Source of the DNA: Candidatus Omnitrophota bacterium
Lineage (GTDB): Bacteria > Omnitrophota > Gorgyraeia > Tantalellales > Tantalellaceae
Direction: 5' to 3'
DNA: 64,000 nt
NCBI GenBank assembly: GCA_049643885.1
Contig: JBARQV010000033.1
Location: 75,229 to 139,228 of the forward strand
In this document: positions 1-55,555 of the stretch, one piece after another
How the letters are laid out: every line of letters begins with the position of its first letter
How positions within the stretch are numbered: position 1 is the first letter of the stretch
Position numbers and translations under genes: made by a program
Notes under the pieces: model-generated
What the model was told of the DNA's origin: nothing
What the model saw: only the letters and a program-made list of their open reading frames with translations
The model's database searches: none

Positions 1-3000
1 GTAGAAAAAGTCGATGAAAAGAGTGAAAGATTTTCGTTAAAACCCGACCGTAAACGCACGGCGAAGCTGATAGAGAGATTAATAAAAAAGGGCAAAAAGA
101 CGTTCGTCGAATACACCATCGCTGAAAGAAAAGAGATCGCCAAAGCTTTGGCCAGGGATTACGGCCTGAAAGGCGCGGACCTCAAGCTGTTTAACCGTTC
201 TATCCTCACCGAATCAAAACCTGAAGTGGAAAGATGGAAGTCCGGGTCCGCCCTTATTACTATTATATCCCTTATTATGCTGGTTCTTGCTCCGTCCAGG
301 CGCGCTCTCGCGATGCCGGAAATATCAGGAGCAGTTTTCACTGCCGGGAATTATCTAGGCGCGATCGGTATATTAGCGGGTTTAGGCGCCATATTAGCGG
401 TACTGGGCATACTGACGTGGAGAGCGAAGAGGAAAGCGATCGACGGAAAAACGACGGCTCGCGTCAAGAAATTCGGCGCGAAGATCGTGGCAGAAGAGAT
501 CCCTTATGAAAAACTTAAAATATGCCATGATTATGACGGCGTGTTTCTTGTAACTGATCCTAAAGCTCATTTTGATCATCAATATAGATTGTTCAATTAT
601 ATCGCGTTTTTCGAGCCGGAGGATAAACCGGGCGTGGAATCCAGGAGGCTGATCTTTGTCCTGCAGAAAGCATTAGAGCTTATCGAAAACCTTTGCATGA
701 ATTCTGAAAATGAAACGGCAAAAGAGATCTATTCCGCGCTGCATAAAGGCTTGATACGGCATGACCGTATGGTAGTGAGAGTGGCTGAAAACCTTCCCCA
801 GACGGCCGTTCTTTACAAGCGCGGAGAGGTCACCGTCCTTGTTCTTAAAAAGGATCTTGTAGACGAAGCCTACGTTAAAGGCCATGTTGTAGGGGAAGAA
901 GACTGGGAAGTCACCCTGTGGCCTCTATGCGAGAGATTGAACCACGAGCTTGGGCATACTGATATATTCAGGAATGGGCCGAAAAGATCAGACGAAGAAT
1001 GCGACAGTGTATACCGCGACTACCTGCTTCTGAAACTGATCTCGGAAACAAAGCCTGAATTCAAGGAGAACGTTGATATTTACATGAAGAGGCTGGGAGA
1101 GAAATACGGCTCTTCTTTTTATTATGGATTTTTAAACGGTCTTCTGAGGGAAGAGAAAGACAAGAAACTCACCGGCGACCAGGTCAAAACAGAAATAAGA
1201 GAGTTTGTAAGGGAAAACTTTAATGATCTGGATGCAGACAAAAAGGCTTTTCCATTCTTCCGCGGAAGGAAAAAGAGCGTCACGGAGGTTTCCCGTTTAG
1301 CATTTGAAGAGGTTAAGAAATACAAGCACCCGGTCACGCATTACAGTGATATCCGGAACGCGCTCAAGGAACATCATGGCATAGACCTGCAAGACAAAAA
1401 ATACAAGAAGGTCAGGATAGACCTGGTGAAGTATTTCGCGAATGTCGATGCGCTTAATACGATAGTGAATTTTTCGGAATACGGTTTCTTACCCCGGAAA
1501 TACGATGAAGACCGGCAGGAGGTCATCGAGGTCGCCAAGATATGCGCCGGGCATGACGGTTTTGCCGTCGCGCTGCATTACAGGAAACTGGGTTTGGATC
1601 CGGAAAGGTCGGTAGACGAAAGGAGAGCGACCGTCGAGATCGCCAAGATCTGCGCCATGCAGGACGCGGAAGGGACCATAAGGCAATTTAAGAACTTCGG
1701 TCTCGGCCTCACTGAGGAACAGGAAAAAGAGTTTTGCCTTGACGCTGAAAGAGCTTCCGTCCAGACGCTCGTCCAGGGTTTTGCCGGGGGTAAAGACCTC
1801 AGGGCGCTTGCCAGCGCGACCGTTTTGATGAAAGCGGTGGATGTGGCGTTCGGCCAGCTTGACTTTTCAGGCCTGGCAATAGGCACCCAGGCTTATGTAA
1901 AACTTCTTCTTCTTGACAAGGTCATCAAAGAAGGAGAGATATCGGATGAGTTTTTACTATACCTGAGGGACAAGGTCGTTCCTTCCCTCCGGGTGCTTGA
2001 AAACCTGACAAAGAACTACCCGACGCTGGGCATGGAACAGGGTATATATAAATATGACTTTATGGACCGGGACAGTTTTGACCTGGGAGTGAAACTCGTC
2101 AATTTTGTATCCAGGGTCCAGGGGGTCCGCCAGCCGTGGTGGTCCCGTTCAAGACAGGATCCGACCGCCAGCCAGGTAAGAATGCCGCCTACTACATACC
2201 CGATTTTCATATTGATGATAAGAAAAATGCTCAAGATGGGTATCATAAGTTCGGTAGCATATTCGACCGCAGTCGCCGGCGAACACATGGAAGAAGCCCC
2301 GTTCGTTCTTACAATGTCGTATCACTCGGCATATGATTATGACCAATACATGGAGATCAACGGGAAGAAAGTGCTCAAAAAAGGCGAAAAGATGCCCGAG
2401 AGGATAGCGGCGGGGGAAGAAGAAAGCCACGCGGAAAAGAAAGAGAAAGAGAAAAAGAAAAAGATCAAGCCGCAGGTCCAGGGAGTCTGGCAGGGGAAGA
2501 CACAGGACCCGTGGAAGGGGACAAAACTTGGAGCGGATGACGCGAAAACAAGAGGGACACAGACAAAGTATTTCCACTCGCTGGTGCCGAAGGATGTAAA
2601 AGCGGTAGAGAAAGACCTGGAGAGGACATTCCTTCTCGCGACTGCCGCCAGCGCTTCACTGGGAACTTATGGGTTAGAAGATGCGGAACTGAGAAAGGCT
2701 TACAAAAGCTTAAAGGATGAAGTAAAAGGATTTTTGATGTCCAGGTTGGGCCTTCCGGAAAAAGATGTCGAAAAATGGCTTTCTCCCGACCCGGAAAAGA
2801 TGGATGTCGTGGGCGATTATGGCAACAAAGAAACCGGTGAGATGCTGGAAAAAATAGCCCAGAAATTCCTCATGGTCACCGGAGACAGAAGCAAGCTCAT
2901 GTCCTCCGGCGCGGGAGGGACCGCGGTGGCTTCTGACGTGGACGAAATGGATCTCGGTTCCGGGTATGTGGACAGGCCCGCGCTTTACCAGGAATTCCAG

Positions 3001-6000
3001 GATATCATAGAGAAGCACACGAAGAGAATGTTCACGCAGATGTTCCCAGGGGAAGCTGGAAAAGTCTTAAGGATGGGCCTTGCCGAACAGTTCGAACAGA
3101 TAGACCCTGAGAGCGTCAGGATCACCGCTCTTCAGATGTGTTACGACGCCGATCCGGGCAGAAGAAAAAGAGCGCTTAATCAGGTCCAAGCGGCTTACCC
3201 GGATGACTATGCCAAGATCATGGCAGCGGAGAGGAAAAGCGCCGGATCAAAAAGCGTAAAAAAGCACAGGCATAAAGGTGACAAGGGTATAGGCGCTAAT
3301 TTTGACGGCATGATACACCAGGGGCCGGAGTCCGAAGTGGAATTCAATTCCCGCTTGAAAGATATCAGGAGCAGGTCCATAGCCGACCGTTATATGGACA
3401 GGATAAAAAAGCTGCTGAAGGATTTCGTAGACCGGGCGGATATTTCAGTCAGGCAGAGGAACGCGCTTGAGGAGGAACTAAGCAACTTCCAGAAGGGGAC
3501 ATATAAGGTATACGGTTTTAATTCTATAGTGATGAATTCAGAAAATGATTTTTACCTGGGATTGAACGACATTAAAAAAATGGAGCTTTTTATTGCCACG
3601 GACCTGTTGTCCGAACTCGATGAGCTTGGCCAGAAATTCGGCGATGAATACCTGCTTCACGAACTTATATGCCCGGTCCTGGGGCATTATCCCGCCATCA
3701 GGGCCCAGCAGGGATTCTTCACAGGGAATTATCCCGACGAGGAGGCAAAGAAGAAGCAGACCTACAAGAAGCCTTACAAGGGGCTGTTGGGCGTGGCGCT
3801 AAGGAACTTCCTGGAAGGCACCGAGCAGACCATCGATGACTTTTTCGAGTATTATCCCCTGGATGTGAAAAAACAAGGAAGGCGGGTCGTGGATCCCCTG
3901 CCCCCGGCGGAGATAATGAAGCAGGTAAGTGAACAAAACTGGCTTTGGATGCTGGATGAAGGAGGCAGAACACACAAGAGCGTTGTGCCCGTTTCCCAGG
4001 ATACCGTGAAAGGGAGAATAAGGAAGTTCAGGGATGGTCTGGGGCCGGTGATCATCGAGAAAAAGCTTCCCGGTGTTTTCGAAAAAGTGAAGATCGGCGG
4101 AAATATCCCGCTCGATCCGGGGACACCGTTCAGGATATTCGTATCCGGCAGTTATTTCTGGTGTAAAAGGCCCCTGGACGACCTTGAAATGGACGTTATC
4201 GTGGACGGGTATTGTCCTTTGAGCGGGCCTCACGAGCTTGAACTGAGCGAAGACGAGATGAAAACGTTATTTTCAGGCCTGGACGTAAAAACCCAGCCGC
4301 TAAAAATAAAAGTGAATGTTTTCGGAACGGAGCAGCTAGAATGCGCGGCAGGTGACCGAAAGATAAAAGACCTGGAAGCCTTGAGAAAAGGGAAAAAGGA
4401 TGAAGAAGCGGAGCGCGAGGTCTTAAGGAAAGCGGAATTATGCGAAAAGCTTATCAGGCTTCCGCACGAGGCTATCCAGCTCCTTGGCAGGAGAGTGGAT
4501 TTTGAGGAACTGGGCGAGACCAGAGCGGAAAATATCCTGAATCTTTACGGGCTGGACAAAGAGAGAGTGACGCGTTCTAAATGGCTTGGGCCGAAAAAGG
4601 AAAGCAGGGATAAGAAGGAGTCCAGGGATTGGACCGTCGTAAGAATGAGGGGGGTACTGGAATACATAGTGAAATATTATAACGTTTTCGAGGGGGCGAT
4701 AAACCCGCACAAACGGAGCGAGAAACTGATACATTTTATCAGCCTTAACAGGCACCTTCCCGGGCCGACTGACACTATAGTGAAATCTTTCAGGAAGTCC
4801 CTGTTCGAGTATATCGAAAATGGGGAACTCCTGGAAGAGCGGTACCGTTTTCTGCGTCCGCTCGGCGCGGGCGGGATGGCTGCCGTGTACAGGGCTTTTG
4901 ACACCAAGGCGAAAAGAACCGTGGCCGTTAAGATCATAAGCGATCAGTTATCCCTTGACCCGAAGAGCGTGGTGAGGTTTTTGCGGGAGGCACGGAAGCT
5001 GAGCGGCCTGAGGCACGAGGGCATAGTTTCGGTTTATGATCACTTTGATACGGTTGACAGCGGACAGTTTTACACAATGGAGGCTATCAATGGCGTTCCT
5101 CTTAATGAGCATTTTGCCGGCAAAGACTACAATGAAAAAGAGCTTGTAAAAGTATTTTTGAACCTCGCCAGAGGCGTCGCATACGCGCATTCAAGAGGTA
5201 TCATTCACAGGGATCTTAAGCCCGGTAACATATTTGTCAGGAGGAACGGGCAGACCATAATACTGGATTTCGGCCTGGCAAAATACGGCTCCGATGCTAA
5301 AGACCAGGAGAGCGGTCTTACCATGCATGATGAGCTCTTGGGGACGCCCGCATACATGCCTCGCGAACAGTTCAGCGGTTTGTTCGTGGGAGTCGATAAA
5401 GAACTATACGGGTTCCTGGAGATAAATTATGAAGACCCGGCCCTGAAAAAATTAGAGTACATGAAAGACATAGAGACTTTCGGAAATATTATGTATGAGA
5501 TGGCCACGGGCCATGTTCCCTATCCCGGAGATACTACATGGGCTGTTCTCTGGCAAAGGGTAGCAGGCGTCAGAAAGCCGAGGGATCACAGGCCGGAGAT
5601 CAGCCCCGATCTTGAAGCGGTAATATTGAAAGGTATGAGTTGGGATCCCCGCGACCGGTACACGGCGGAGCACCTGATAAACGAATTGCAGAGGATCTAT
5701 GAAGGCAGGCACAGCAAAGAATACGCGGACATGCTCAAAAAGCAAAGGAGAGGATTTTTATACAAACAGATCCCGTGGGTGGCGATGCTGGCGATATCGT
5801 TTTTTGTATTACCCGGATTCTGGGGTAATTTACTTAAACTGCCTGTCCTGCAGGCATTTGACAGGGGAATAGGGGTATTAATGATGACGATAGGCGCGTT
5901 TGTGGGCCTGAGAAAACCCCTGAAATTGGCATTGAAAGGGATCAAATGGGTATTGCAGAAGGTGTTCGGGCTGCGCATCCAGGTAGAGGTCAAGAGGAAG

Positions 6001-21000: not shown

Positions 21001-24000
21001 TTTGCCATAATAGAGGATCCAAAGACGATACCTATAATGGTCAAGGGTTTTCCATACGTTAACGAGATGGGACAGCTGGGTATAATCGGCGCTCTTGCTT
21101 CTCTTGGCAGCAAGGGAGCCGTAAAATTCATGTCCAAAACCATATTGAGTTCGGCGAATTCAAAGATGCGCGCCATGGCGGCTTTGGAATTGATCACGCG
21201 AGCAGAGTGTGACGACAAAGAGAAGATCTTGGGATCCTTCTTTGGGCCCACTTGCGACAATATCCTCATGGCCTATACTTCCGCTGAACAGGTCAGGGAA
21301 AACGGAGGCCAGTCCATATCTTTAAAGGCTATCATAAAATCCAAAGAAGAAGCCCTAACGAAGGCGAGGGAAGCGAAGCGCCGGGCCGCGATATGGGAGA
21401 AAACCAGGGAACTGGCCGCGGAACAAGGAAAATTAGATAGAGCGGAGAAGGGGCTCAAAGAAAATACGGCAAGATTGATCGTCTTGGGCGAGGACGCCGT
21501 CCCCGCGTTGATACCTCAGCTGAAAGAGGAGAGGGAAGCTATTATGCGCATCGTGGTCGAGATCCTGAGCAAAATAGGAAGCACTAAAGCGATAATACCT
21601 TTAAGCAGAGTTCTGCCGAAAGTCAAGAACCCCGAGATCCAGCTATTGGCCATAGAGACGCTTGAGAAACTTGGCTCTTCGCTGCTCCAGACAAGGGCGG
21701 AGGAAGACGCGAAGAGCAAAGGAAAGATACCCCGCGCTTTGAGGGAAGTATGGAAGTTCATAGCCGGCATTTTTACCGGGATCTTTCACGAGACAGGTTC
21801 ATTCCTTGAATGGATACCCAAAGGCAAGAAGCCCAAAGACCCGAAGAAGACCGCGTTTTTGTCGAAAAAGAGGATCGTTTACTGGGGCAGAAGTTTACGC
21901 TGGAGGATCGTGGATAAGATCAATAATGCGGGCCGTTCCTTGAAAAGGGATCCGTTGAGGGTGGAAGCCGATATGTTGATCGGCACCCTGACCTCAAAGG
22001 ATGAAAAAGCCCTTGATCTCGCGTCGGGGGCATTGGACAACTTACGCATCCCACTAAGGAAGATCATCAATGGTGAGATCAAGGCTTTCAACGAGAGTCC
22101 GCATCCGACGGCGCGGAAGTTCGCGGCGGAACTTTTGTGTGATTACGCTCTTACTGAGGGCGCCGGGCGCTGGGCAAAATTCAGAATAAGAAATCTTTTG
22201 TTCCGGGGTTTAAGTGATGAAAATCTGGACGTGATCGAAGCTTCCCACAAGTCACTGATTAAACTGGGTGTCGCGCCTGAAAGAATTGCGCGAGCCGAGA
22301 TAAGCGCTTTCTCAAATCCACACGCGAAGGCCAGGAAGTTCGCGGTGGAATTTTTGTCCAGGTACATAACGCCGAAAAAATCCGAAGAAGCCGGGGAAGC
22401 GGAAGACGGTAAAAAGTCCGAAGAAAAACTGGAAAGAAAGATAATTGCGATCCTGTTTGACGCTTCAAGGGATATAGACGCCGGTGTCAGGCGGTCTGCT
22501 TCAAACGCGTTGGGTAAACTTGGTCTCACGGGTGAACATCGAATAGAGGATCTAAAGGAAATATGCGGACGAAGCGGCGCAAAGAGCGGCAAAGCGGCAA
22601 GAGCTCTTGTTTACAGTTTATACGACCCCTACGGGGAAGTCGTAGAATTTGCAATGGAAAAATTAAAATCTCCCACGGCCAAAAAGGCAGTTCCGTATCT
22701 GGCAGCTGTCTTATCTGACGAGAGCGCGCCGTTTGTCCGCCTGGCGGCCGCTACGATCCTCGGTGATATCGGCGATACAAAAGCGATCGAGTCATTGCGT
22801 AAGCGTCTTTCGGACAGCGACGTGAAGGTCCGCCGGACTGCATACGAGTCCCTGGCCTTGCTGGATGAGCCGAAAGGACTTATAGAGGCGCTTGTCAGGC
22901 TGCTTGTCAAGACTCCGGAATTAGATGAAAAAGTCCGGAATGATGCCTTGGCATTCCTGGGCGAGATCGCTTCTAATATGGGAAGGGAAGCTCAGGAAGT
23001 GCAGGACGGAATAAACATGTTGGTTAAAGCTTCGTCCGAGACGGTAATGGAGATGCCCCTTTACAGCGCGGTAATAGAGGCCATGAATCAGCTAGGGGCT
23101 TCACAGGAACAATTCATTACTGTTATCAACGGAGCCTTAAACAGCTTTGACGGTAACGTCCGGCAGGCTGCCGCTGAACACCTCGCGGGCATAAATGCTC
23201 CAAGCGTAGAACGGGAAGGCCGTACTGAAGAGCACCGGGAAGCCCAGGATCAGGAAGTTCAGGACCAGGGGACGGTTGAGCTCGGCGGTTTTGCCTTTAT
23301 GCCTTTTGTCCTGGCTGCCGGAGAATTGCGTACCGGGGTTTTATTATGGATTGCGATCGTAAGCATAATTTTACCCGTAGTTTGGGCGATAGTTTTACGT
23401 CATCAAATAAAACAGTGGTGGGGAAAGAGCGGAAGGCCGGGATTATCGGCAGCATGGACGTGGATAAAGGAATGGCGTCCATACAGGGTCAAGCTTTGGT
23501 TCTGGAATGCGATGTCCCATGCCGCGCAGCCATCTTTCAGGGCTGCTGCCATCAGGCGTCTGGGCATATACAGAGGAAAGGTAGACGCGAAGAGATGCGA
23601 TCTGATAGATAGGAGACTTATGGCCTGCCTGTTTGATAATAGGTTCCCTGGGGGTATTGTGGAAGCCATGGAGATCTTGAAAAATATAGGAAACGAACAA
23701 ATGGCAAGATCCCTCGTTGTTATACTTCATGGCGAGGAGGAAGCATCGACCCGCCAGGCCGCGGTAGAAATACTGAGCGAAATAGTGAAAGCCGGAAAGA
23801 TAAAAGATCCTGCTTTTCAAAGATCGGCCAAGGAAACCATGTTTCTCCTCTTACGTGACGATCCCGATACGGATGTTCGCGCGGAAGCCAGTGTTGCCGC
23901 CAGACATCTCGGAGCTACTAATGACCAGATCATCGAAGCGTATATATTAGCTTTAAAGAGCAAGCATGCGGAAGCCCGTAAGGTAGCAGTAATGAACCTT

Positions 24001-27000
24001 GCCGGTCTTGGCGCGAAACACGCAAAAGCCAAAATACTCCGGCTGATTTCCGGGGAAGAGGACGATGAAGTTCTGAACGCCGCTGTTGATGCGGTACGCA
24101 AGCTCGGTGCCAGTGAGGAAGAGATCGGCGCGGCAAGGCTTAGAAGCATTGCCTCTGAGATGAGTGAGCATTTTGGGGAGTCGTGGATAGCGAAAGGAGA
24201 ACCATCCGCGGAGGAGCAGCCTAAAGTTGCGGCCGAAGCAATTACAAAAGCGCAGCCCGCGGCAAGCGCCGAAAAAGCCGCTGTCGAACAGGCGCAAAAA
24301 GCACCCCCGAGAGAAGGCAGGGGATTCAGTGCCTGGCTGGCCGGCACCTGGTTAGGCCGTTTTGGGTTATGGATAGGACGTAAGGTAAAAATACAATGGA
24401 TGCTGATCATGCCTATGAGCGGACAGCCAAAGAAGAGGATAGCCGCTGTCAGATACCTGGCCAAGTACGGCGTTAAACGTGAAAAGATATTGAAAATTAT
24501 CACTAAATACATGGGCGATCCGGACCTGGATGTCGCCGCGGCTGTAATGGAAGTTTTGAGTAAGCCCGAGAATAAAGAAGCCGTTCCATTCCTTATTGGA
24601 GCGTTGGCTGATAAAGATCATATGGTCCGTCTTAGAGCGGTCGCTTCCCTGGGTGCTTTGGGCGCGAAAGAGGCTATAAGGTCTTTACTTGGATGTTTAG
24701 CTGACGAAAACGAAAAAGTCCGCGCAATAGCATACCGGGTTCTTACTGCTAGTCTGAATGCCCCGGATGAGTTCCTTGTGCCGAAACTTGTCAGCCTTAC
24801 AAAGCACCGTGACGCGGGCATCAGAAAGGATGCTATAAAATTCCTGGGAAAACGCGCTTCGGTGCTGGGCAAGGATTCATCTGATGTGCAAAAAGCCATA
24901 AATGATCTGAGTGTCAGGTGTTACAACCGTAAATTATCCGGTGATGAATACAATACAGTCGTAGAAGCTTTTCACGTACTGCCCATTACGCGGGACCAGC
25001 TGGTCAGTGCCATGCTGGCAGCTATCGGAAGCAGCGATGAAAATGTCTGTGTTGCTGCTTTAAATGTTTTAGGGGATTACGGTACTTCTTTCAAAGCGAG
25101 GGATGCCATTGTCCAGATAATACAAAAGGAGGAGCCATCGAGCAGAAAGCACCAGGCGGCACAGGTTGCACTATCGAAAATAACTGCGCGCGAAACCGGA
25201 AGAGCCGACGACCATGATATATTTGACCAGGGTGAAAACGGTTCTACTACTCTCCATTCTTTCGATCTATTCGCTATGGGAACAATGTTGGCTGCCTTGT
25301 CCTCCGTGCATTGGACTATATTGTCGTTTATTGTGATCAGCATCTTAGGTGGTCTTGTAACGTATTTTATCCTCGCCTGGAAGAAAGCGTTTGTTCGTGA
25401 TGCGCCGGACAAATACGCCGCGGCAAAACCGGAACGGCCGGAAGTCAGGTTTATGGGAACGGAATCTCAGACCATAAAGGCTTTCAGGGCGAAAGCTCGC
25501 AGGGCAAAAGATACCGCCACAACCTTAATGAGTGTTTACTGGGAGACGGGCTCTATCGCCGATTCTCACGGTAATGTCGCGAGAGTAAAGCAGCTTGTAA
25601 AGGCTCTGGTAAAGCGGGGAGCCAAGAGGATCGTTCTCCTGGGCGATTATATCGACCGGGATGTTAGAAGCCGGGAACTTCTTGAATATGTAAAATGGCT
25701 CATGGATGGAACCGCTCCCGAGCTTGAAGGAAATAAAATAGAGATCGTGCCCCTTATGGGGAACCATGAGCTTATGTTCATATATGCAATGTTGGGCAAC
25801 CATTTAGCGTTCGATTGGTGGGTCGACAACGGCGGGGATAAAACGCTTGAAAGATTCGGGATCACAAGAGAGATGGTCTTTAGAGAGTTGATGGCGGAAG
25901 GCGAAGTCCCGTCAGGGCAGGAAACAAAGAAGAGGATGTATGAAAAGGCTTTGAAAAACACTGAACTCAGGGAATTAGCAAATTGGATGCGGATGAACTT
26001 CAGATTGAGTTACCTGGATGAAAGGAAGGTACTTTACCTTCACGCCGGTATTAACGTTAATGATAGAGGATTGCCGGACCTGAGGTATGGGAACAAGCAC
26101 AATCTGGAAGCGCTTGAAAAGATGCAAGAAGACCTGCGGTCGGCGGAGAAAAAAGAGGACATCAAGAAGATCTTCAGTGAACTTTCCGATGACTCTTCCC
26201 CGCTCTTTTTAAGGGAAGTCCTTTATGGTGAAGGCCTGGTGCCCTGGTATGAATATATAGCCCGGAAAGGGACCGCGGATGAGTTCTGCAGAAAATTAGG
26301 CGTAAGCGCTATCGTGGTCGGCCACGATCCGCAGGAAGGTGAAGCTGTAAATGTCGGCAATCGCATATTCGTTACGGACATCCTGATGCAGAAGCAATAT
26401 TTCCAGGACGTGAAGAGAGACCATGATACAGGGACGAGACCGCTCAATGCCGCTGAGTTAGAAGCGACTCTTGCCGCTTCCGAGCGCGGCAGGGGAGGAT
26501 TCCTACTTATAGGAATTCAGGGTATAGTGGCAGGTGTCGTTAAATTTGCCGTTGAATTAAGCAGGGAACACAGGATGTCCAGGCCCAGGGGCAAAGAGGA
26601 CAAGGATGTAGTCGGTACGTCTTTACTCGTTTCAAGAAAACAGCTTAATACTTTTGTAGCGGAATGCCTGCAGCTACGCAGGAAAAAGGACGCCCAAAAA
26701 CAAACCAGGGCCAGGAGAAAAGCTGCTAAAAAGAATGAGAAAAAGAAAGGAAGGTCCGGTTTGAAAGGAGGCAGGGCTCTCGGCATTCTCCTTTTCTTGA
26801 CGTTTATCTCAAAATCAGCATTTGGTTTTGAGCCGGAAGGCTTGTTCAATAACGCTATTATTTACTCGCCGGAAGCTGCTGCCGTATTCGCGCTTTCAGC
26901 GGCTGTGATCTTTGTGATCGGGATGTATGCCGCCGCTTTCGTTGTGACAGGGGGGCTTGCCCTTATCGGGCTGACTATCGGAGGTATAGGGAAAGGGGCT

Positions 27001-27807
27001 TCGATCTTATCAGGGACTTTACCGGAAGAAACGTTAGAGCCCGCTCACGCGCCGCCTATGGCAGTGCTTCCCGCCCGGGATAAACTGCCGGAAGCCCGGC
27101 CGGAAGTAACTGTTGAAGAGCCCGGGGAAATGGTCCTTGAAGCGGAACTACAGGAAAACATCTCGCCGCTGGACGGGATAATCACGAGGATCCTGCCGGA
27201 CCTTGTGATCGCGCTGCAGACGCTTAGCTACAGAGCCCAGGAGAAGGGGACAGTGGTCATCGCTATCGATGACAGTCTGGGGTCCGGCTGGACGCAGAAA
27301 AAGATCCAGGCGATAAGAAAAACACTTTCGTTCCTGGCAAGGAGGAACGACGAGCTTGCCAAGTTCCTGAACAGGGTCGAGATCCGGCATGCGGATGGTG
27401 TTGAACTTGCCGGAAAACTCAAGATGCTGGAGAAAAACGGTAAGGCCAGCAAAGAAGACATGATAATCATAACCTCGGAAGAGAACCGCAAATATTACGG
27501 GGATTTTGAAGGCGTTTCCACCATGACATGCGTCAATGACAAGCAGATAAACGGTGAGGTATATTTTCCTTTCGTAGAGATAGTACTTTATACTCTTGCC
27601 CGGGCCCTGGCGAACAGAGGCGTCGCGGTTTACGGGAAAGACGTTGTCAAACGCTATTACAGCCTGATATCCAACATGGAACTTGTCGATGACGGCAGTA
27701 TTTACGGGCCGACAGTTGTCATCAGGCTTATACCCGGCGCTACGCCCATAACCGCCGACAGAGAACTTTATGAAAAAATAGCCAGGTTCATCACCACCGC
27801 CGCATAA
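1..27807 (+). CDS. Giant multidomain membrane signalling protein (>=9219 aa, 5'-partial): Ser/Thr kinase + 2xPAS + GGDEF + PBS-lyase/HEAT-like repeat array + PPP-family phosphatase, >=12 TM clusters
   Basis: Single stop-free frame from nt 1 to TAA at 27805-27807. The first in-frame start codon is TTG at 148, but no stop lies upstream in this frame, so the ORF almost certainly continues past the 5' window edge. Domain motifs read directly from the translation are listed as sub-features. Antisense ORFs across this span are shadow ORFs. Confidence 0.9.
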   Translation, partial: VEKVDEKSERFSLKPDRKRTAKLIERLIKKGKKTFVEYTIAERKEIAKALARDYGLKGADLKLFNRSILTESKPEVERWKSGSALITIISLIMLVLAPSRRALAMPEISGAVFTAGNYLGAIGILAGLGAILAVLGILTWRAKRKAIDGKTTARVKKFGAKIVAEEIPYEKLKICHDYDGVFLVTDPKAHFDHQYRLFNYIAFFEPEDKPGVESRRLIFVLQKALELIENLCMNSENETAKEIYSALHKGLIRHDRMVVRVAENLPQTAVLYKRGEVTVLVLKKDLVDEAYVKGHVVGEEDWEVTLWPLCERLNHELGHTDIFRNGPKRSDEECDSVYRDYLLLKLISETKPEFKENVDIYMKRLGEKYGSSFYYGFLNGLLREEKDKKLTGDQVKTEIREFVRENFNDLDADKKAFPFFRGRKKSVTEVSRLAFEEVKKYKHPVTHYSDIRNALKEHHGIDLQDKKYKKVRIDLVKYFANVDALNTIVNFSEYGFLPRKYDEDRQEVIEVAKICAGHDGFAVALHYRKLGLDPERSVDERRATVEIAKICAMQDAEGTIRQFKNFGLGLTEEQEKEFCLDAERASVQTLVQGFAGGKDLRALASATVLMKAVDVAFGQLDFSGLAIGTQAYVKLLLLDKVIKEGEISDEFLLYLRDKVVPSLRVLENLTKNYPTLGMEQGIYKYDFMDRDSFDLGVKLVNFVSRVQGVRQPWWSRSRQDPTASQVRMPPTTYPIFILMIRKMLKMGIISSVAYSTAVAGEHMEEAPFVLTMSYHSAYDYDQYMEINGKKVLKKGEKMPERIAAGEEESHAEKKEKEKKKKIKPQVQGVWQGKTQDPWKGTKLGADDAKTRGTQTKYFHSLVPKDVKAVEKDLERTFLLATAASASLGTYGLEDAELRKAYKSLKDEVKGFLMSRLGLPEKDVEKWLSPDPEKMDVVGDYGNKETGEMLEKIAQKFLMVTGDRSKLMSSGAGGTAVASDVDEMDLGSGYVDRPALYQEFQDIIEKHTKRMFTQMFPGEAGKVLRMGLAEQFEQIDPESVRITALQMCYDADPGRRKRALNQVQAAYPDDYAKIMAAERKSAGSKSVKKHRHKGDKGIGANFDGMIHQGPESEVEFNSRLKDIRSRSIADRYMDRIKKLLKDFVDRADISVRQRNALEEELSNFQKGTYKVYGFNSIVMNSENDFYLGLNDIKKMELFIATDLLSELDELGQKFGDEYLLHELICPVLGHYPAIRAQQGFFTGNYPDEEAKKKQTYKKPYKGLLGVALRNFLEGTEQTIDDFFEYYPLDVKKQGRRVVDPLPPAEIMKQVSEQNWLWMLDEGGRTHKSVVPVSQDTVKGRIRKFRDGLGPVIIEKKLPGVFEKVKIGGNIPLDPGTPFRIFVSGSYFWCKRPLDDLEMDVIVDGYCPLSGPHELELSEDEMKTLFSGLDVKTQPLKIKVNVFGTEQLECAAGDRKIKDLEALRKGKKDEEAEREVLRKAELCEKLIRLPHEAIQLLGRRVDFEELGETRAENILNLYGLDKERVTRSKWLGPKKESRDKKESRDWTVVRMRGVLEYIVKYYNVFEGAINPHKRSEKLIHFISLNRHLPGPTDTIVKSFRKSLFEYIENGELLEERYRFLRPLGAGGMAAVYRAFDTKAKRTVAVKIISDQLSLDPKSVVRFLREARKLSGLRHEGIVSVYDHFDTVDSGQFYTMEAINGVPLNEHFAGKDYNEKELVKVFLNLARGVAYAHSRGIIHRDLKPGNIFVRRNGQTIILDFGLAKYGSDAKDQESGLTMHDELLGTPAYMPREQFSGLFVGVDKELYGFLEINYEDPALKKLEYMKDIETFGNIMYEMATGHVPYPGDTTWAVLWQRVAGVRKPRDHRPEISPDLEAVILKGMSWDPRDRYTAEHLINELQRIYEGRHSKEYADMLKKQRRGFLYKQIPWVAMLAISFFVLPGFWGNLLKLPVLQAFDRGIGVLMMTIGAFVGLRKPLKLALKGIKWVLQKVFGLRIQVEVKRKPDLIQADKDKEEKGVSLPWLMVLQLVPVTLAVVMVFFNILWGFCSWALIGILSAVPFGVFVDKFVARLEKALGKKEEKDESVRRMLAQQAAVAADPGSDSDFDVDPADYSGSADSVPRPPDGGAIGKLFGAEGRQVKEGIIAKERNEFLEFHDNGRKEVLRTKDGREARFKVMGSYKDPDSGQIVKIIEDNEHIRGFANKENLYLSESLVKSLMPTYREIATYHELRHNYYARHPEELPIGINAHTFLRGCGKEVREMVKKALKKNDLKEYFTAEEIISYLGEKLSIARQNPVEIALIRYNEEVLGEKGIELLYGEQDRKFGARANDDFSRELQRQSQIITSSKLPPKTYVPGIVGITLGVFSWLLISFASAYLLKGSFIGSIFSSDVPLLVTKGMISAAFIVSGLVSQHFINLYRGYYRYKELFDDSPVAFHTLDKDFRITGVNKRWCELLGYTEKEVRKHEIFEFIYVDPSDEVDAEKQIRNARERAVARMEGKTVPDKIGYGPYRKYRTKNGKPVIVETRDTTLRDTQNRPTGIQTSFVDVTEAVEAVESLEKERGLLKSITSNTPDFIFVKDTKSRLVFSNDAHFKALGAASFEEVRGSTDFGHFPDELARKYYDDEQGVMKSGIPLIGEEERFIDSSGSERWLSTTKVPLRDSGGEIIGIVGISRDITELRNLQIKDPRTGAYDRKFLLKDEFRARWSMSVERAKHTVSVLMCDLDHFKRFNEAPYDHDTGDLVLRAVVRRIAKELRDGDILVRHGGEEFLVILFNTDAEETGVVANRILSSVRGLFISDEKRGDIDDITISIGGAELTDEEQIQVGIVNKQLAKLVKKKDIGEEELAEATEKLAPLWKRADLALVHRAKREGRDRYVFSEPNHETEKREDAGKDPGSTTLSCIAMTPLLPVILGLNDIATCLTLVAVLAVLFYSIVHFASSESASSGGEGSEEHLISILDSFDLEASCQAAIQLGNIGGEKAAEALLGGRLVNLEPTYKAYKTEALGNIAASHNLSPETAKRISDLLFVMLNDGDKDVQRAAADALEAIGEAKKDDMCILYAYLYDPIGKMKHEGVLERIEMGLLTSRLIGALNLGSKVQGSAVNVLSRVADPQVVEALIDQLTNEDANFRVAVIKALRDIGKRLSERVNNAKARGRKPDPNEEATKGRVTEVLFFCSENDPDTRVREAAARSLGLVGGPEISQRLSGMLKKKDSWQVKEAAIESLGKTGDARGATAIFAIMGEGGVPHGAYLTCLRALGEISHSLRRLLTRNLPPDMEKRIRGYLKAINSNLVKGLEDERMDIRAVAAETLLIKCDVSELKDIISDPEKVLRAHVIINQKEEQALPTAAGITQEMAIEFTTKAIVEKKWSKLAELGQHAAPALLKALNDPVAFFRQKAAETLQVVRHPLTIAPLWERLFIEKSNDVSYAIAQAILAMGGENAEKELKKFIEEHPDPAIWKVTTLYLMGETKKASTMIKKLLEENDQEIIQKFLEDRLEKGFPKEEKEPLKKLIDMGVTIHFDILADQGSSKTARIDALRFLGKYGAEKQVDGLVTASKSNDMEIVKEAGTALASINERQVRKKIPTYLEVLADPGASSRARVEAADFLGEYGGPAERKALVNAAGGMDFKVTKAITMAISKIDKRHGGKKKGSHGFAFLPFAIPQNFSELIEIIKESPVWCGAIALGALAVFAGLILFLRFVYHRLRPVVWNLKRIGSKNPAKRKAAAAALGELAPFKEKEIEEVISALEETTRDKVSAVRMAAAEAIGKIGKEAENAIPDLVRLVIEDEDPQVRITAAKSLGETGLMGIFALAEKLKDEDAAVRLSAAKAFGNVDPKTPKIEHIFVNLEGTLEDPDKDVRDAGMNAFSSLDALTPERKVKRYIADLGDGQHVGVRDEAMRQLDELDAVTIGLRVKKYMFDLEDDNAEVRKSGAEKLGKLGVYARGLGRKIRGTDEEFREMLNELKKAAPILVQMLQKDEGAGIRAAAAAALGDIGPVTFEVVPALVKAVKDPEAKVRESAILALCKFPAATPNMTNAIIGAAGDKNEGVRAAAARFFGGVKPASDRVISVLVKLSGDPDENVRRDARTVLEKLEKPQAAVPSLIEIAKDEEKDLDTRVAAILGLGEITPVTTEAINNLVSFIRAAAGREAVHQKATDRELAGRNIIVGRSSTHETAVLSKSEEEKTHREEFIAGEEFDGKDEFHREVVEKSQTREHDSRRIAYEEAAAREAYLRESETRETSLRKSAEREAAIRETAVEALVKIGPSAKPIFMQLLADDEEYVREAGAHAIAKISPDAVQELISIICATDTDTKSKNFGRDYYFRRYAAKELVKIGPEAVFALMENLESRDPRSRKAVESALGIIGEEPVIEAAVHVFAAKGPEVIPVLVNLAKSEHYHIRLFMARAIRKVGPEAISALAEELNSGKDSDLSHAADALGEVGPDAALAADRLEKLLENEMWWVRNSAFGALKKIGALTLERKKKKFRKDSEDKHSLAYRLSGKKALEELEFREMLGGLGGFVPVFLAQGTLGNYIRTLISKLEELEAANPTAFWVIAGAAGILLTAGVILAARRALRPKRKRYLRMATGEILAERVKGIKGLAELRDRKDLAGLCEALKNDDSPEVREAAAEAIGMFSEAGNTMDVRDVLESALMDPVKSVRATALEAILNIGIGPRAAAEALTVALSESNPLDVREDAAVYLGALGESHRDDVDTIEAIATGLALAMKDENTSIRRAVMRSFNRLAHPRVVGFLAIMLSEDADADIRCEAAEALARTDSPYAVIPLTEAMIGDADSTVRKAATRAVADICAQIKGAPIVKDKVVPVFVEALGDRDKEVRKRVALEFPSIAAPDVLEQVLGPDYQEILEGYTLAAKGELENIGSKGMPALTAALKDNDSSVREAAARRLGELDLSKLIPHVAEALEDPDESVRESAVRVLGDFGDRRAIGLLNQAFYNARTGSSVHAAVREALKKSLMKFVSSLDMDGDKPDKGTTQILFMAVKSDDSSLHEAAAKHIARLDPLEALSSLEKHLTHEGPSVRSVAVNLYKERALKYLSSGPVPSAAPRIVRVLADAGVKDEDTVSRLKTAVLSILDTQPETMVIIDLVAALKGNYDPVFDAVMERIERSDFSQLFPHLVNATSSPKEDIRHGAVLILGRFREEKVIALLERIIGREDPGSLVHITAMETLEWSLIDLICAHPDSPDTERYKGLLFAYGNEDTVKKLRSRLADLKEELSPGLLKILDELQKALHKKIDPGLETFGSFMLLPLASASMYGGAHYLMIFLAYVLYGAVIAGVGVATYMYLLKRYCPDEYRYLTDRWDDLKVGSSLRKQLWQQLRQEEGWKGVLKLEWPRFKASMRRSGRWIVLRFSLIVSYFNRGSSSLQARVRLRAIRELVEYLLTDENYVVRRKAIERIGDQAGLLDKDVSLGDDFIRVLLDEKIIRSPESTVRIAAVKALDKLSRGWKNWLGMPDSLRDPMIGELETSLSDKEPEVRKVAWKVLRDLNEEDEGLIRALTEALKSDDVSVRRDAIAMIMKVKENEGAIKPLLERLTDPNRQVRLDAAGTVCNLTHKIAETQEEAAAVERVKDILMNNDEVARDAEFREIAVNILGNIGYISPVRLLKVTLLDESWRVRRNSAEALGRIAKCLIKTPMGQDIAEVGYIITYLTEALNDKNRLVRKAAADTLLSMDYPAMVKAGIVPSQFEQAKLDRILRGYIFAADKKWEDLGWLGEDAVPALIGELNDEHDPARQKAARSLGDMAIPDPVLNNNAVEALLKRLAGEDDPYVHAVYIHALGKLGDTRALEPLRNILLSDERPFMRMVSIEALGILGSQLEENSIEKGFIYKTLIARLYIDKGTPLISPMVWTLSKMGGPNVVELLITTLKGKNPEGENGPDCMAAVTVLGNLAGEIKKDREPKERTIKTLLPFLSSGNAELRDAAANVLSSLGTTDERLAMGYAEALKSKYSAARKNAAYVLGVLAYSLGPDAVERKEVIKALLEILAGDPDMDARMAAFYSVNKLEATYKQQARAYIKQVHNENMEIRRHAVKSLASYAGILKSPRAVAYALMEAMADPEADIRQTAAEGLRKRTESFDDPEPETVLYSNLYHGNIDAVVAAGKGNVDFLIEVLDSGPKTRKSAIQALGGICQTLSRDPEDVPVREKIVSVLNEVETQTDQDTIYREHAVYELSQIAPAESIPNMIDALKDANDYIRQTAAITLGNIGDAKTVEPLIEAYEAEGQQAQIRREIVHALAKIGGGKAVNAVVKALKDGAIGVRKVAARDLGTIAAKTGNVKAMVYSSLFSGEENWIIRILVGKQIIHGLIDILEKGELPVRLDAMEHLKERAIDFAEDVLFSGEADPATLKCWKILNDELIRTLQDHKRIKDEIEAMQEAEKTAKGVQEIKETKEEEIKKQMGRIAEDTLKEINEMFKENAEAKERLEKALAEKPQEIGNIRDEAMVLYDAMDSGPEVGENAKNIMCQMLSTLKRIPKYRGVLFEFRRDLITCLAVVFKSDSKMMRDSMAELFKDVDDGMAQFYRELYVAEKTDWIIEKIKSESRERRAVTYLFLISSLNICPEIQKTAASILSRTIQYFRRDPVCISRIFSSLVELFEKGQDGDARAAAASSLGEIMLYLESAPEARNALEKEIKEELERFIAVSGDPQEDGKVRAAAAETLGHISPVLKRYPEIKDSAKKVLIDTIRDEEDNTVRAGLAKGLGRLGDPKAIPVLLYVYGLLEEFKKKADDVGSRGAIMLALGQTGSCLKEPLRDEIKEILLGIDVPKKEKGTWEQEVKGLGKSVDTGAIRFLKEILETEENESVKASANKAIKQIEAALKENKRFIDIVIAMLHKGLKDAEVSVRENAVEGLGQICLRMPDIGRKETPFLLRAMRDKDRYVRGAGAKVLRQSGASALVEKAYPEREVLLAYEIVAKKAPSIGGTFTATHLGVAAGLISAREIDRKAFLEQELIALGSNSIPALKDVFEERQLDDPFILTAANVFAIIEDPKTIPIMVKGFPYVNEMGQLGIIGALASLGSKGAVKFMSKTILSSANSKMRAMAALELITRAECDDKEKILGSFFGPTCDNILMAYTSAEQVRENGGQSISLKAIIKSKEEALTKAREAKRRAAIWEKTRELAAEQGKLDRAEKGLKENTARLIVLGEDAVPALIPQLKEEREAIMRIVVEILSKIGSTKAIIPLSRVLPKVKNPEIQLLAIETLEKLGSSLLQTRAEEDAKSKGKIPRALREVWKFIAGIFTGIFHETGSFLEWIPKGKKPKDPKKTAFLSKKRIVYWGRSLRWRIVDKINNAGRSLKRDPLRVEADMLIGTLTSKDEKALDLASGALDNLRIPLRKIINGEIKAFNESPHPTARKFAAELLCDYALTEGAGRWAKFRIRNLLFRGLSDENLDVIEASHKSLIKLGVAPERIARAEISAFSNPHAKARKFAVEFLSRYITPKKSEEAGEAEDGKKSEEKLERKIIAILFDASRDIDAGVRRSASNALGKLGLTGEHRIEDLKEICGRSGAKSGKAARALVYSLYDPYGEVVEFAMEKLKSPTAKKAVPYLAAVLSDESAPFVRLAAATILGDIGDTKAIESLRKRLSDSDVKVRRTAYESLALLDEPKGLIEALVRLLVKTPELDEKVRNDALAFLGEIASNMGREAQEVQDGINMLVKASSETVMEMPLYSAVIEAMNQLGASQEQFITVINGALNSFDGNVRQAAAEHLAGINAPSVEREGRTEEHREAQDQEVQDQGTVELGGFAFMPFVLAAGELRTGVLLWIAIVSIILPVVWAIVLRHQIKQWWGKSGRPGLSAAWTWIKEWRPYRVKLWFWNAMSHAAQPSFRAAAIRRLGIYRGKVDAKRCDLIDRRLMACLFDNRFPGGIVEAMEILKNIGNEQMARSLVVILHGEEEASTRQAAVEILSEIVKAGKIKDPAFQRSAKETMFLLLRDDPDTDVRAEASVAARHLGATNDQIIEAYILALKSKHAEARKVAVMNLAGLGAKHAKAKILRLISGEEDDEVLNAAVDAVRKLGASEEEIGAARLRSIASEMSEHFGESWIAKGEPSAEEQPKVAAEAITKAQPAASAEKAAVEQAQKAPPREGRGFSAWLAGTWLGRFGLWIGRKVKIQWMLIMPMSGQPKKRIAAVRYLAKYGVKREKILKIITKYMGDPDLDVAAAVMEVLSKPENKEAVPFLIGALADKDHMVRLRAVASLGALGAKEAIRSLLGCLADENEKVRAIAYRVLTASLNAPDEFLVPKLVSLTKHRDAGIRKDAIKFLGKRASVLGKDSSDVQKAINDLSVRCYNRKLSGDEYNTVVEAFHVLPITRDQLVSAMLAAIGSSDENVCVAALNVLGDYGTSFKARDAIVQIIQKEEPSSRKHQAAQVALSKITARETGRADDHDIFDQGENGSTTLHSFDLFAMGTMLAALSSVHWTILSFIVISILGGLVTYFILAWKKAFVRDAPDKYAAAKPERPEVRFMGTESQTIKAFRAKARRAKDTATTLMSVYWETGSIADSHGNVARVKQLVKALVKRGAKRIVLLGDYIDRDVRSRELLEYVKWLMDGTAPELEGNKIEIVPLMGNHELMFIYAMLGNHLAFDWWVDNGGDKTLERFGITREMVFRELMAEGEVPSGQETKKRMYEKALKNTELRELANWMRMNFRLSYLDERKVLYLHAGINVNDRGLPDLRYGNKHNLEALEKMQEDLRSAEKKEDIKKIFSELSDDSSPLFLREVLYGEGLVPWYEYIARKGTADEFCRKLGVSAIVVGHDPQEGEAVNVGNRIFVTDILMQKQYFQDVKRDHDTGTRPLNAAELEATLAASERGRGGFLLIGIQGIVAGVVKFAVELSREHRMSRPRGKEDKDVVGTSLLVSRKQLNTFVAECLQLRRKKDAQKQTRARRKAAKKNEKKKGRSGLKGGRALGILLFLTFISKSAFGFEPEGLFNNAIIYSPEAAAVFALSAAVIFVIGMYAAAFVVTGGLALIGLTIGGIGKGASILSGTLPEETLEPAHAPPMAVLPARDKLPEARPEVTVEEPGEMVLEAELQENISPLDGIITRILPDLVIALQTLSYRAQEKGTVVIAIDDSLGSGWTQKKIQAIRKTLSFLARRNDELAKFLNRVEIRHADGVELAGKLKMLEKNGKASKEDMIIITSEENRKYYGDFEGVSTMTCVNDKQINGEVYFPFVEIVLYTLARALANRGVAVYGKDVVKRYYSLISNMELVDDGSIYGPTVVIRLIPGATPITADRELYEKIARFITTAA
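943..957 (+). other. HExxH motif (HELGH) in the N-terminal unknown region of the giant protein; possible zincin-like metallopeptidase signature
   Basis: Codons cac gag ctt ggg cat. An isolated motif is weak evidence on its own. Confidence 0.2.
4843..5700 (+). other. Hanks-type Ser/Thr protein kinase domain within the giant ORF
   Basis: Gly-rich loop LGAGGMAAVY, VAVK lysine, catalytic loop HRDLKPGN (5206-5229), DFG (5266-5274) and GTPAYMPRE. All catalytic residues are present. Confidence 0.85.
7276..7650 (+). other. PAS domain 1 within the giant ORF
   Basis: FHTLDKDFRITGVNKRWCELLGYTEKEVRKHEIFEFIYVDPSD is PAS-like, and it follows a TM pair at about 7050-7230. Confidence 0.6.
7690..8030 (+). 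other. PAS domain 2 within the giant ORF
   Basis: ITSNTPDFIFVKDTKSRLVFSNDAHFKALG ... GEIIGIVGISRDITE is a typical PAS fold ending (IxGxxxDITE). Confidence 0.65.
8050..8625 (+). other. GGDEF diguanylate cyclase domain (GGEEF variant, RxxD I-site present)
   Basis: The domain begins RTGAYDRKFL. It carries DLDHFKRFN, an I-site-like RDGD five residues before GGEEF (8281-8295), and LRAVVRRI. Confidence 0.8.
8880..25230 (+). other. PBS-lyase/HEAT-like repeat super-array (about 5.4 k aa) interrupted by TM hairpins and E/R-rich or coiled-coil linkers
   Basis: Repeat units of about 31 aa of the form xxVRxxAAxALGxIG(D/G)xxA(V/I)xxL occur throughout, e.g. DSSVREAAARRLGELD...DESVRESAVRVLGDFGDRRAIGLL. 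Hydrophobic TM clusters sit at about 10960-11100, 13640-13720, 15790-15930, 23280-23420, 24320-24420 and 25270-25390. An E/R-rich linker lies at 12430-12780 and a coiled-coil-like EK-rich segment at 19130-19350. Confidence 0.8.
25517..26400 (+). other. PPP-family (calcineurin-like) Ser/Thr phosphoprotein phosphatase domain within the giant ORF
   Basis: IADSHGN is a GDxHG variant, GDYIDRD (25642-25662) is a GDxxDRG variant, and GNHE lies at 25758-25769. A later VVGHD completes the set. A basic juxtamembrane stretch and 2-3 TM helices follow at 26650-27000. Confidence 0.75.
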
Positions 27808-54848: not shown

Positions 54849-54875
54849 AAGATACAAAAGATAGAAATTTCCCTC

Positions 54876-54903
54876 TTGAAATATATTTTTTTTGTAGTAT
54901 ACT
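54876..54903 (+). promoter_or_regulatory. sigma70-like promoter candidate at the left edge of the low-GC islet (TTGAAA-16-TATACT)
   Basis: TTGAAA at 54876-54881, a 16-nt spacer, and TATACT at 54898-54903. Confidence 0.35.
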
Positions 54904-54913
54904 AGTTTATGTT

Positions 54914-54944
54914 AATTCATTAAAAAGCAATCTTTTAATGAATT
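54914..54944. promoter_or_regulatory. Operator-like palindrome AATTCATTAAAAAG-caat-CTTTTAATGAATT
   Basis: It is a 13/14-bp inverted repeat between the candidate promoter and the small ORF start at 54998. Confidence 0.4.
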
Positions 54945-54997
54945 TTTTAAGTATAACTTATTCATAACTTTTTTAAAGTATTAATTTTGAGGTCCTT

Positions 54998-55372
54998 ATG
55001 AGGCAAATGGTTTTTCGAAATATCCTTGGCAATAATCCGAGGAAGTACGAAATATCACTTGAGGAGATAAGTGACCGGTATAGGTCCACATTGGCCAGGA
55101 AAATTATTTCTAAATATTTCGTCAAAGATAAATATGAGGCAAAAGACCAAGATGACGCACAGTTGTGGATAGATCTGAACAAGAGAAGCGATATGCCCCA
55201 TAATTGCCATATATTGACCACGATAAACTCCCGCACAGGAGATCATAAGATGATATGCAAGGCGATGGGAAACTTTTACATGATAATACGGTCTATGGTC
55301 TATAAGCTGGTGTATATAAACGAGGTACGGATCCAGATAAAGAATGTCAGGAAGGTGAAAAATGAAGGCTGA
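54998..55372 (+). CDS. Hypothetical small basic protein (124 aa) in the low-GC islet
   Basis: The ATG has a GAGG RBS 7 nt upstream. AT-rich codon usage differs from the neighbouring genes. I recognise no domain. Confidence 0.5.
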   Translation: MRQMVFRNILGNNPRKYEISLEEISDRYRSTLARKIISKYFVKDKYEAKDQDDAQLWIDLNKRSDMPHNCHILTTINSRTGDHKMICKAMGNFYMIIRSMVYKLVYINEVRIQIKNVRKVKNEG

Positions 55373-55548: not shown

Positions 55549-55555
55549 ATATATA

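Follow-up and report, generated by a model that had tools for sequence, protein, structure and literature searches.

The 64-kb stretch of DNA analysed here, called the window throughout, begins inside a giant gene whose reading frame is still open at the 5' edge, and 36 kb of smaller genes follow. Read from nucleotide (nt) 1, frame +1 reaches its first stop codon, which ends at nt 27807, after 9,268 sense codons. As stated in a preliminary description of this DNA, nt 1-147 contain neither a stop nor an ATG, GTG or TTG; the first candidate start is the TTG at nt 148, which leaves 9,219 codons.

1..27807, + strand: 3' 27.8 kb of the giant gene (9,268 codons plus stop); stop-free frame, uniform coding signal, gene call in a sister metagenome-assembled genome (MAG)

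Such a frame had been judged beyond chance at about 50% GC, and the base counts bear this out: with 49.8% GC in the window, the probability of a stop at a random codon is ~0.053, and a 9,268-codon run has a chance of ~1e-218. Over the span of the giant gene, stops number 20-42 per 500 codons in the other two forward frames and 178-454 in total in the three reverse frames. In every 1.5-kb bin of the gene the GC content decreased from codon position 1 over position 3 to position 2, the purine fraction at position 1 was 0.62-0.73 throughout, and the codon-position composition matched that of the downstream recA, alaS, hisD and other housekeeping genes. The full gene, as called in the sister MAG GCA_049644745.1, encodes 11,637 amino acids (aa) in ~34.9 kb. 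The window thus misses about 2,369 codons (7.1 kb) at the 5' end of the gene, in agreement with the earlier expectation that the real gene exceeds its visible part. The 27.8-kb frame is a genuine single gene, ~35 kb in full. Amino acid numbers given below refer to the visible 9,268 residues, which are also the part covered by the domain searches; the N-terminal 2,369 aa are outside the window.

A chimera caused by a collapsed repeat array had been raised as a concern. Self-comparison with blastn and Tandem Repeats Finder (TRF) detected no DNA repeats or tandem arrays within 1-27807, and the HEAT modules of the encoded protein share just 25-38% identity with one another at the protein level, so that a collapsed-repeat chimera lacks a substrate. 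An exact-match lookup of the RecA encoded in the window led to the same locus in four other assemblies, the longest being the 146-kb contig JBARSM010000028.1 of NCBI GCA_049644745.1. Over 21 kb (window 19512-40579) this contig was 99.92% identical to the window. Of the 16 differences, 15 were inside the giant gene and none created a stop; in-frame stops in an independent assembly had been named as a sign of several separate genes, and in GCA_049644745.1 the frame stays open.

Fourteen of these differences are concentrated in an 85-bp patch within a HEAT repeat (window 23988-24072), where the frame is intact, four codons change the amino acid, the rest are synonymous and the changes in the sister MAG (L001) are mostly to G. 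The patch could represent recombination between strains, microdiversity, or an artefact of local assembly or of sequencing. Two independent, more fragmented assemblies of the same species (L002 and L003; Logan SRR29492073 and GCA_049645405.1) have contig ends at ~28092 and ~28250, ~300-450 nt past the stop codon of the giant gene. Short-read assemblers thus seem to break off at the gene or close to it, which matches a published remark that fragmented MAGs under-report long open reading frames (ORFs).

When 1.84 billion cluster representatives were searched exhaustively with HMMER, aa 141-1340 serving as query, 190 proteins were returned at E <=1e-3 and 32 at <=1e-30, many of them 2,000-7,000 aa long. 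A word-indexed search with aa 1-1600 found no homologue and missed the protein itself, so this index evidently misses these proteins; protein-pattern scans with aa 1-500 in genome and metagenome contigs gave no match. Several relatives run parallel to the giant protein over long distances. P0010, which spans an entire 7.8-kb contig of GCA_046759285.1 with both ends open, is collinear with aa 1026-2129 (41.5% identity) and 3598-4467 (38%), P0002 with aa 491-1908 (36%), and the complete 6,377-aa P0058 with aa 1152-1935 and 2117-2878, followed by a shared C-terminal cap. Among the arguments at hand for one translated polypeptide, this collinearity across module junctions, with the reading frame kept at 31-41% identity, is the strongest. 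Internal gene starts at the junctions were considered and rejected, given that a scan of the giant ORF for in-frame Shine-Dalgarno and start signals revealed no clustering there.

Three signalling enzymes and a long series of helical repeats were recognized by profile searches:

4843..5682, + strand: Hanks-type Ser/Thr kinase, aa 1615-1894 (Pfam Pkinase E=1.2e-35; NCBIfam PknB-like 2.7e-64)
7258..8523, + strand: PAS-PAS-GGDEF diguanylate cyclase, aa 2420-2841 (Pfam PAS, PAS_4 and GGDEF 2.6e-25; TIGR00254 4.3e-29)
8848..25200, + strand: diverged HEAT / PBS-lyase-type arrays in five blocks, ~5,450 aa (aa ~2950-8400), with 34 HEAT_2 stretches
25555..26334, + strand: PPP-family (calcineurin/ApaH-like) metallophosphatase, aa 8519-8778 (Pfam Metallophos 3.2e-12; NCBIfam ApaH-like 3.7e-6)

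The catalytic motifs of all three enzymes are intact. The kinase carries VAVK1641, HRDLKPGN1736 and DFG1756, and the phosphatase DSHG8521, GDYIDRD8548, GNHE8587, HAG and GH. In the cyclase (PAS 2420-2490, PAS_4 2566-2676, GGDEF 2682-2841) the active site reads GGEEF at 2761, and the RDGD of the inhibitory site (I-site) is positioned at 2752, exactly five residues upstream. Searches of PDB sequences and profiles with the phosphatase gave no significant match. The repeats were identified as HEAT_2 in Pfam (E=1.7e-127, 3.7e-106 and 4.1e-47) and as CpcE/NblB-like in NCBIfam, and all 40 occurrences of the HEAT signature fell inside the HEAT zone. At window 12400-12800 (aa ~4140-4260) the arrays are broken by a highly charged stretch rich in E, R and A, REAYLRESETRETSLRKSAEREAAIRE, also conserved in P0010 and possibly a coiled or disordered linker. 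Neither SecA_DEAD, dockerin, TSP3, lectin or carbohydrate-active enzyme (CAZyme) domains (Pfam; NCBIfam for all except TSP3) nor glycosyltransferase, glycoside hydrolase, methyltransferase or NUDIX domains (Pfam, NCBIfam) were detected in the visible protein.

Residues 1-1600, 2100-2340 and the last 350 aa had no match in Pfam, NCBIfam or PDB sequences. Local hidden Markov models (HMMs) and alignments of the relatives resolved the following blocks in the N-terminal part:

466..1266, + strand: X1 block, aa 156-422, with the HExxH motif ERLNHELGHT; 12 copies in 11 proteins (local HMM)
1348..1755, + strand: short repeat units of ~33-65 aa, 'IEVAKICAxxD...FKNFGL', aa ~450-585; multi-stretch matches, up to 22 in P0003
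1837..2328, + strand: X3 block, aa 613-776, a conserved domain in 24 proteins (local HMM)
3304..3816, + strand: X5 zincin-like domain, aa 1102-1272, in which H1220-E1221-x-x-C1224-x4-H1229 replaces HExxH
3892..4671, + strand: nucleotidyltransferase (NTase)-like block, aa 1298-1557, with G1383-S1384-x9-D1394-x-E1396...D1398...D1402 conserved in 7 proteins
6364..6990, + strand: X6 block, aa 2122-2330, a conserved domain with 12 copies in 6 proteins (local HMM)

The X1 block is probably a zincin-type module, as judged from its conserved residues: E311, R312, H315, E316 and H319 are kept in 11 of the 12 copies, with the consensus 'ERLNHELxHS'. The X5 domain was found in 65 near-complete copies in 50 proteins, with up to four per protein. 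Its AlphaFold2 model, built on a 29-sequence alignment, reached a mean predicted local distance difference test score (pLDDT) of 93 and a predicted TM-score (pTM) of 0.88 and displays the catalytic fold of zincins, that is, sheet, backing helix and active-site helix. D1183, E1216, Y1217, H1220, C1224 and H1229 are invariant or nearly so, C1224 being conserved at 86-90% or more and H1229 without exception. The helix after the sheet reads H-E-x-x-C-P-x-x-G-H. Since this departs from the HExxH of zincins, X5 is labelled 'zincin-like' and kept outside the named peptidase families. The model points to a zincin variant with putative metal binding in which Cys would replace the second zinc ligand. 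No match to X5 appeared in the word-indexed homologue search, and none of significance in the PDB sequence and profile searches. The block at aa 1298-1557, which has no Pfam match, resembles Pol-beta nucleotidyltransferases at the level of motifs and is taken as a lead only. A HELRH at aa 2224 in X6 was rejected as a protease motif, given that the relatives keep just H2224, and no paralogy was found between the two HExxH stretches.

The short repeat unit, written as 'IEIAKxCAxxxG...F(K/Q)N(F/Y)G(L/I)', also occurs in 4-10 copies in a second, distinct group of proteins of ~1,000-1,300 aa, which end in '...PYEYVDA..G...'. These proteins are devoid of X5, cap and leader and thus constitute a separate repeat-protein family.

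Hydropathy scans indicated ~20 hydrophobic segments in the visible protein, arranged as follows:

241..420, + strand: membrane hairpin, aa 81-99 and 108-140, then a basic cluster (hydropathy)
5767..6183, + strand: about four hydrophobic segments, aa 1923-1945, 1956-1970 and 2014-2061, the last counted as two (hydropathy)
7045..7245, + strand: membrane hairpin, aa 2349-2375 and 2395-2415 (hydropathy)
8671..8811, + strand: membrane hairpin, aa 2891-2912 and 2914-2937 (hydropathy)
10948..11088, + strand: junction of 'GFAFLPF', spacer, transmembrane (TM) segment and basic cluster, aa 3650-3696; same junction in P0010
13534..13710, + strand: hairpin junction, aa 4512-4533 and 4545-4570, then RRALRPKRKR (hydropathy)
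15778..15918, + strand: hairpin junction, aa 5260-5306, a 47-aa uncharged run (hydropathy)
23281..23397, + strand: junction of 'GFAFMPF' and TM segment, aa 7761-7799 (motif, hydropathy)
25267..25380, + strand: hairpin junction, aa 8423-8460 (hydropathy)
26779..26991, + strand: two or three hydrophobic segments, aa 8927-8944 and 8959-8997 (hydropathy)

About four segments separate the kinase from X6, and two lie between X6 and the PAS domains. These even counts fit a cytoplasmic location of both the kinase and the GGDEF domain, whose nucleotide substrates demand it. Most of the later junctions consist of two adjacent segments with K/R-rich sequence after the second. Hydropathy patterns of this kind suggest that each junction is a hairpin and that all soluble modules face the cytoplasm. 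The GFAF(L/M)PF motif, which is common to the giant protein and P0010, occurs three times in the former with 0.015 expected by chance. A 'GF...' junction start was not enriched across the family (p=0.16), so the motif reflects HEAT modules that were duplicated together with their anchors. A sorting signal of the PEP-CTERM or LPXTG type at the junctions was rejected on the same result and on the lack of an NCBIfam match.

The protein ends in a domain that is shared with relatives:

27208..27771, + strand: C-terminal cap, aa 9070-9257, predicted alpha/beta, end ...ITTAA*; present in 22 proteins

The 21 others among these 22 proteins had been retrieved via N-terminal similarity only, and in all 22 the cap is located 11-54 residues before the C-terminus; in the giant protein it ends 11 aa before the protein end. 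A signal-peptide-like leader, '...LCLFLxNxIAWA|xPD', was observed in 15 of the 17 complete cap-bearing relatives. The shared cap and the recurring blocks place the giant protein in a mosaic family whose ends are conserved and whose interior is shuffled; its members have the cap, the HExxC domain and, when complete, the leader in common. With P0058 it has in common the cassette X5-NTase-like-kinase-TMs-X6-TMs-PAS-PAS-GGDEF, and it differs from this relative by ~6,200 extra residues, namely HEAT blocks and phosphatase, between cassette and cap. The cap itself gave no significant match in PDB sequence and profile searches, and the cap alignment, used in a second scan of metagenomes, gave no match either. 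An AlphaFold2 model from two sequences was poor (pLDDT 51.5), and Foldseek was uninformative (TM-score <=0.35).

A complete family member of 2,046 aa with leader, kinase, X5 and cap is encoded in JGI metagenome 3300038439 (Ga0394675_117121; locus L086). Its gene begins 13 nt past that of an 867-aa protein with a methyltransferase domain, with two Laminin_G_3 genes and a GH94 glycoside hydrolase (GH) gene upstream, a context more of the surface and CAZyme type than that of the window.

Downstream of the giant gene, the 36 kb of the window contain housekeeping and biosynthetic genes, all on the + strand:

downstream genes, first part, + strand: cinA, thpR/ligT, recA, recX, alaS, hisD-B-H-A-F-I, trpE-G-D-C-F-B-A
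downstream genes, rest, + strand: M16 and M50 peptidases, rpe, glmM, lepA, lepB, der, plsY, gpsA, tRNA-Pro, hom, thrC, apgM, lysC, leuA

No type II secretion system (T2SS), pilus, glycoside hydrolase or carbohydrate-import genes were found in these 36 kb. Compared with GTDB r232 species representatives, RecA came closest to those of two Ca. Omnitrophota MAGs, at 75% and 73% identity, and matches from mixed phyla reached no more than 68%. An Omnitrophota bacterium that lacks a close representative is thus the most likely host. None of the searchable papers mentioned the source accessions. Among 80 recA loci, which included four Omnitrophota MAGs, none had a giant ORF or a homologue nearby. The arrangement is kept in a closer relative, a 1-kb contig from JGI metagenome 3300048990: a truncated ORF at the contig edge shares 47% identity with the last ~200 aa of the giant protein and ends in ...ISTAA*, and a cinA with 76% identity to that of the window follows. 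The tail of the giant protein is thus conserved, yet evolves much faster than its neighbour.

All credible genes of the 64-kb window are on the + strand. The GC skew is positive in all 2-kb bins and the cumulative skew climbs monotonically to 4.57, which suggests a long co-oriented stretch, probably on the leading strand. The sole RNA gene found in the window is tRNA-Pro(GGG) at 56819-56897, between gpsA and hom. The plsY-gpsA gap of ~950 nt (54849-55804) had no Rfam match and contains a single ORF of 124 aa (54998-55372); in the 54-56 kb bin the GC content falls to 0.43.

We consider it the best explanation, with a probability of roughly 60%, that the giant protein is a signalling hub and scaffold that is stapled to the inner membrane and faces the cytoplasm. 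About ten helical hairpins would fix the megaprotein to the inner membrane and keep the large soluble modules in the cytoplasm. The five HEAT solenoid blocks (~5,450 aa) could offer extended binding surfaces and recruit partner proteins along the membrane. There, the tethered Ser/Thr kinase would write and the PPP phosphatase erase phosphorylation locally, and the PAS-gated diguanylate cyclase, subject to product inhibition, would supply local cyclic di-GMP (c-di-GMP). The two predicted zincin-type, protease-like domains (HExxH and HExxC), the NTase-like block and the cap would be further modules of the same assembly. Several points weigh against this explanation. The membrane segments were called by hydropathy scans, and the junctions at aa 3650-3696 and 7761-7799 carry one strong TM segment plus GFAFxPF, which makes their parity uncertain. 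The leader of the relatives, ending in AWA|xPD, would place the first module outside the cytoplasm. The assignment of the host depends on RecA as a single marker. In the Archaeovorins, a published class of Omnitrophota giants, HEAT repeats were predicted to be extracellular, predictions which the authors called unreliable (West-Roberts et al. 2023, bioRxiv 10.1101/2023.11.21.568195).

Three other explanations have to be weighed against a membrane-stapled hub. The protein may be a self-processing polyprotein, in which X1 (HExxH) and X5 (HExxC) cut the precursor at or near the hydrophobic junctions and free membrane-anchored HEAT scaffolds and enzymes. The zincin fold of X5 with its conserved H, E, C and H, the HExxH kept in 11 of 12 copies of X1, the presence of up to four X5 domains per relative between unrelated modules, and the junction layout of motif, TM segment and basic cluster that recurs in the giant protein and in P0010 are in line with this possibility; autocatalytic cleavage was also posed as an open question by West-Roberts et al. 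(2023). We nevertheless regard it as rather unlikely: no cleavage site is known, Cys stands in place of His as second zinc ligand in X5, which leaves its peptidase activity putative, a single X5 and a single X1 face ~ten junctions, the junction start shows no family-wide enrichment (p=0.16), and a protease fold might equally target other substrates. The same idea extended to the whole group, that is, a large, previously undescribed Omnitrophota-like mosaic family with Sec-type leader, HExxC zincin-like domain(s) and invariant cap, whose giants are precursors cut by this protease into membrane-anchored parts, must be called quite doubtful.

The protein could also act in adhesion or attack at the surface of, or secreted by, a predatory or episymbiotic cell, as in the Archaeovorin model, with an exported N-terminus, HEAT repeats that bind host or prey and enzymes acting outside or in the host. 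The signal peptidase I (SPase I)-like leader of complete relatives, the GH94 and Laminin_G_3 genes adjoining family member P0031, and the published model, which puts HEAT outside and ties giants to predation, speak for this role. The kinase, GGDEF and NTase-like modules, however, require cytoplasmic ATP or GTP, the hydrophobic segments are mostly paired, the visible protein is free of SecA_DEAD, dockerin, lectin and CAZyme domains, and the downstream 36 kb are housekeeping and biosynthetic, with no T2SS, pilus or glycoside hydrolase gene; a surface role is distinctly unlikely. Finally, the 35-kb gene might not exist and be an artefact, several adjacent genes having been joined through misassembly, a collapsed repeat or a sequencing error. 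In the same species, three further assemblies do end ~300-450 nt past the stop of the giant gene, and two MAGs differ at 14 positions within 85 bp. Such an artefact is highly improbable in view of the absence of DNA repeats that could collapse, the open frame with uniform coding signal over 27.8 kb, the independent MAG with the same open frame and 11,637-aa call, and the distant relatives that are collinear across junctions; a chance fusion over ~ten junctions with neither stop nor frameshift is implausible.

Compared with known zinc peptidases, the X5 model has the zincin catalytic fold in common with the minigluzincins (selecase, projannalysin and proabylysin) and with M48 and M56 zincin domains. 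It differs from them in HExxC followed by P-x-x-G-H, in an extra helical N-terminal extension of ~70 aa and in being embedded in giant mosaics, and it has no detectable sequence similarity to them. MARTX toxins are very large mosaics with conserved termini and variable internal enzymes, which an internal protease is able to release. They offer an analogy in the way of working, not homology, to a giant mosaic with conserved termini, variable modules and a possible releasing protease. Unlike MARTX toxins, the protein encoded in the window has TM hairpins and HEAT arrays, and is without RTX repeats, a cysteine protease domain or a type I secretion system context.

Giant proteins of Omnitrophota have been described with up to 85,804 aa and include the 'Archaeovorin' and 'Dockerin-type' classes (West-Roberts et al. 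2023). The window gene is unlike the Dockerin-type giants in that Pfam revealed neither dockerin nor TSP3 repeats in it. With Archaeovorins, in which GGDEF domains are frequent, it shares HEAT_2 as the most frequent domain (34 stretches), numerous TM segments, peptidase content and the open question of cleavage. Archaeovorins were, however, defined on genes >90 kb (>30,000 aa), whereas the window gene has ~35 kb. The visible 9,268 aa also lack the SecA_DEAD / SecA preprotein-binding, glycosyltransferase, GH, methyltransferase and NUDIX domains, and the 36 kb downstream lack secretion and carbohydrate-import genes.

A later catalogue reported Omnitrophota proteins of up to 147,155 aa, clustered 5,761 proteins of at least 10,000 aa (80% singletons) and found at least one protein of this size in 93.8% of complete Omnitrophota genomes (Nielsen and Lui 2026, bioRxiv 10.64898/2026.06.07.730766). 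The lineage guess of the preliminary description agrees with the RecA result. The statement made there that such genes are rare and mostly uncharacterised does not hold within Omnitrophota, where two preprints list giants of at least 10,000 aa by the thousand. In 94% of the catalogued giants there were TM helices or a signal peptide, with 22 TM helices on average, and the 'TM-only, cytoplasmic-domain' class, to which the topology proposed for the window gene would correspond, was the commonest (46%; Nielsen and Lui 2026). The published catalogue also features signalling modules, HEAT scaffolds, Trp and His biosynthesis that is intact, and repeats that are old and diverged but form no nucleotide tandems. 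Neither preprint mentions the combination of kinase, PPP phosphatase and GGDEF, the HExxC zincin-like domain or the C-terminal cap, their supplementary catalogues being outside this comparison.

The window gene, whose host is probably of the same phylum, resembles the class of at least 10,000 aa in its 11,637 aa, ~20 hydrophobic segments, signalling enzymes together with HEAT repeats, and old diverged repeats without nucleotide tandems. It is unlike the class in its position at the short end of the size range and in its flank of housekeeping genes (cinA-thpR-recA-recX-alaS-his-trp) instead of T2SS, pilus, GH or mobile elements. As giant genes go, it is ordinary: most complete Omnitrophota genomes are documented to contain at least one, and it agrees with that class in the features tested. 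To this it adds an anatomy at the level of the family and a concrete candidate protease domain. X5 (~175 aa, in ~50 related large proteins) is a candidate for the processing protease on which earlier papers only speculated, and its size suits expression and assay; if the polyprotein were indeed cut by a family protease, the question whether bacterial giant proteins act whole or in pieces would become testable with a defined domain. With ~35 kb, no DNA repeats and active-site motifs in three signalling enzymes, the gene is a compact, well-assembled and readable case, and its close and distant relatives show how giants of this class are constructed: the kinase-to-GGDEF cassette and the cap are kept, and ~6,200 aa of HEAT repeats and phosphatase are inserted between them.

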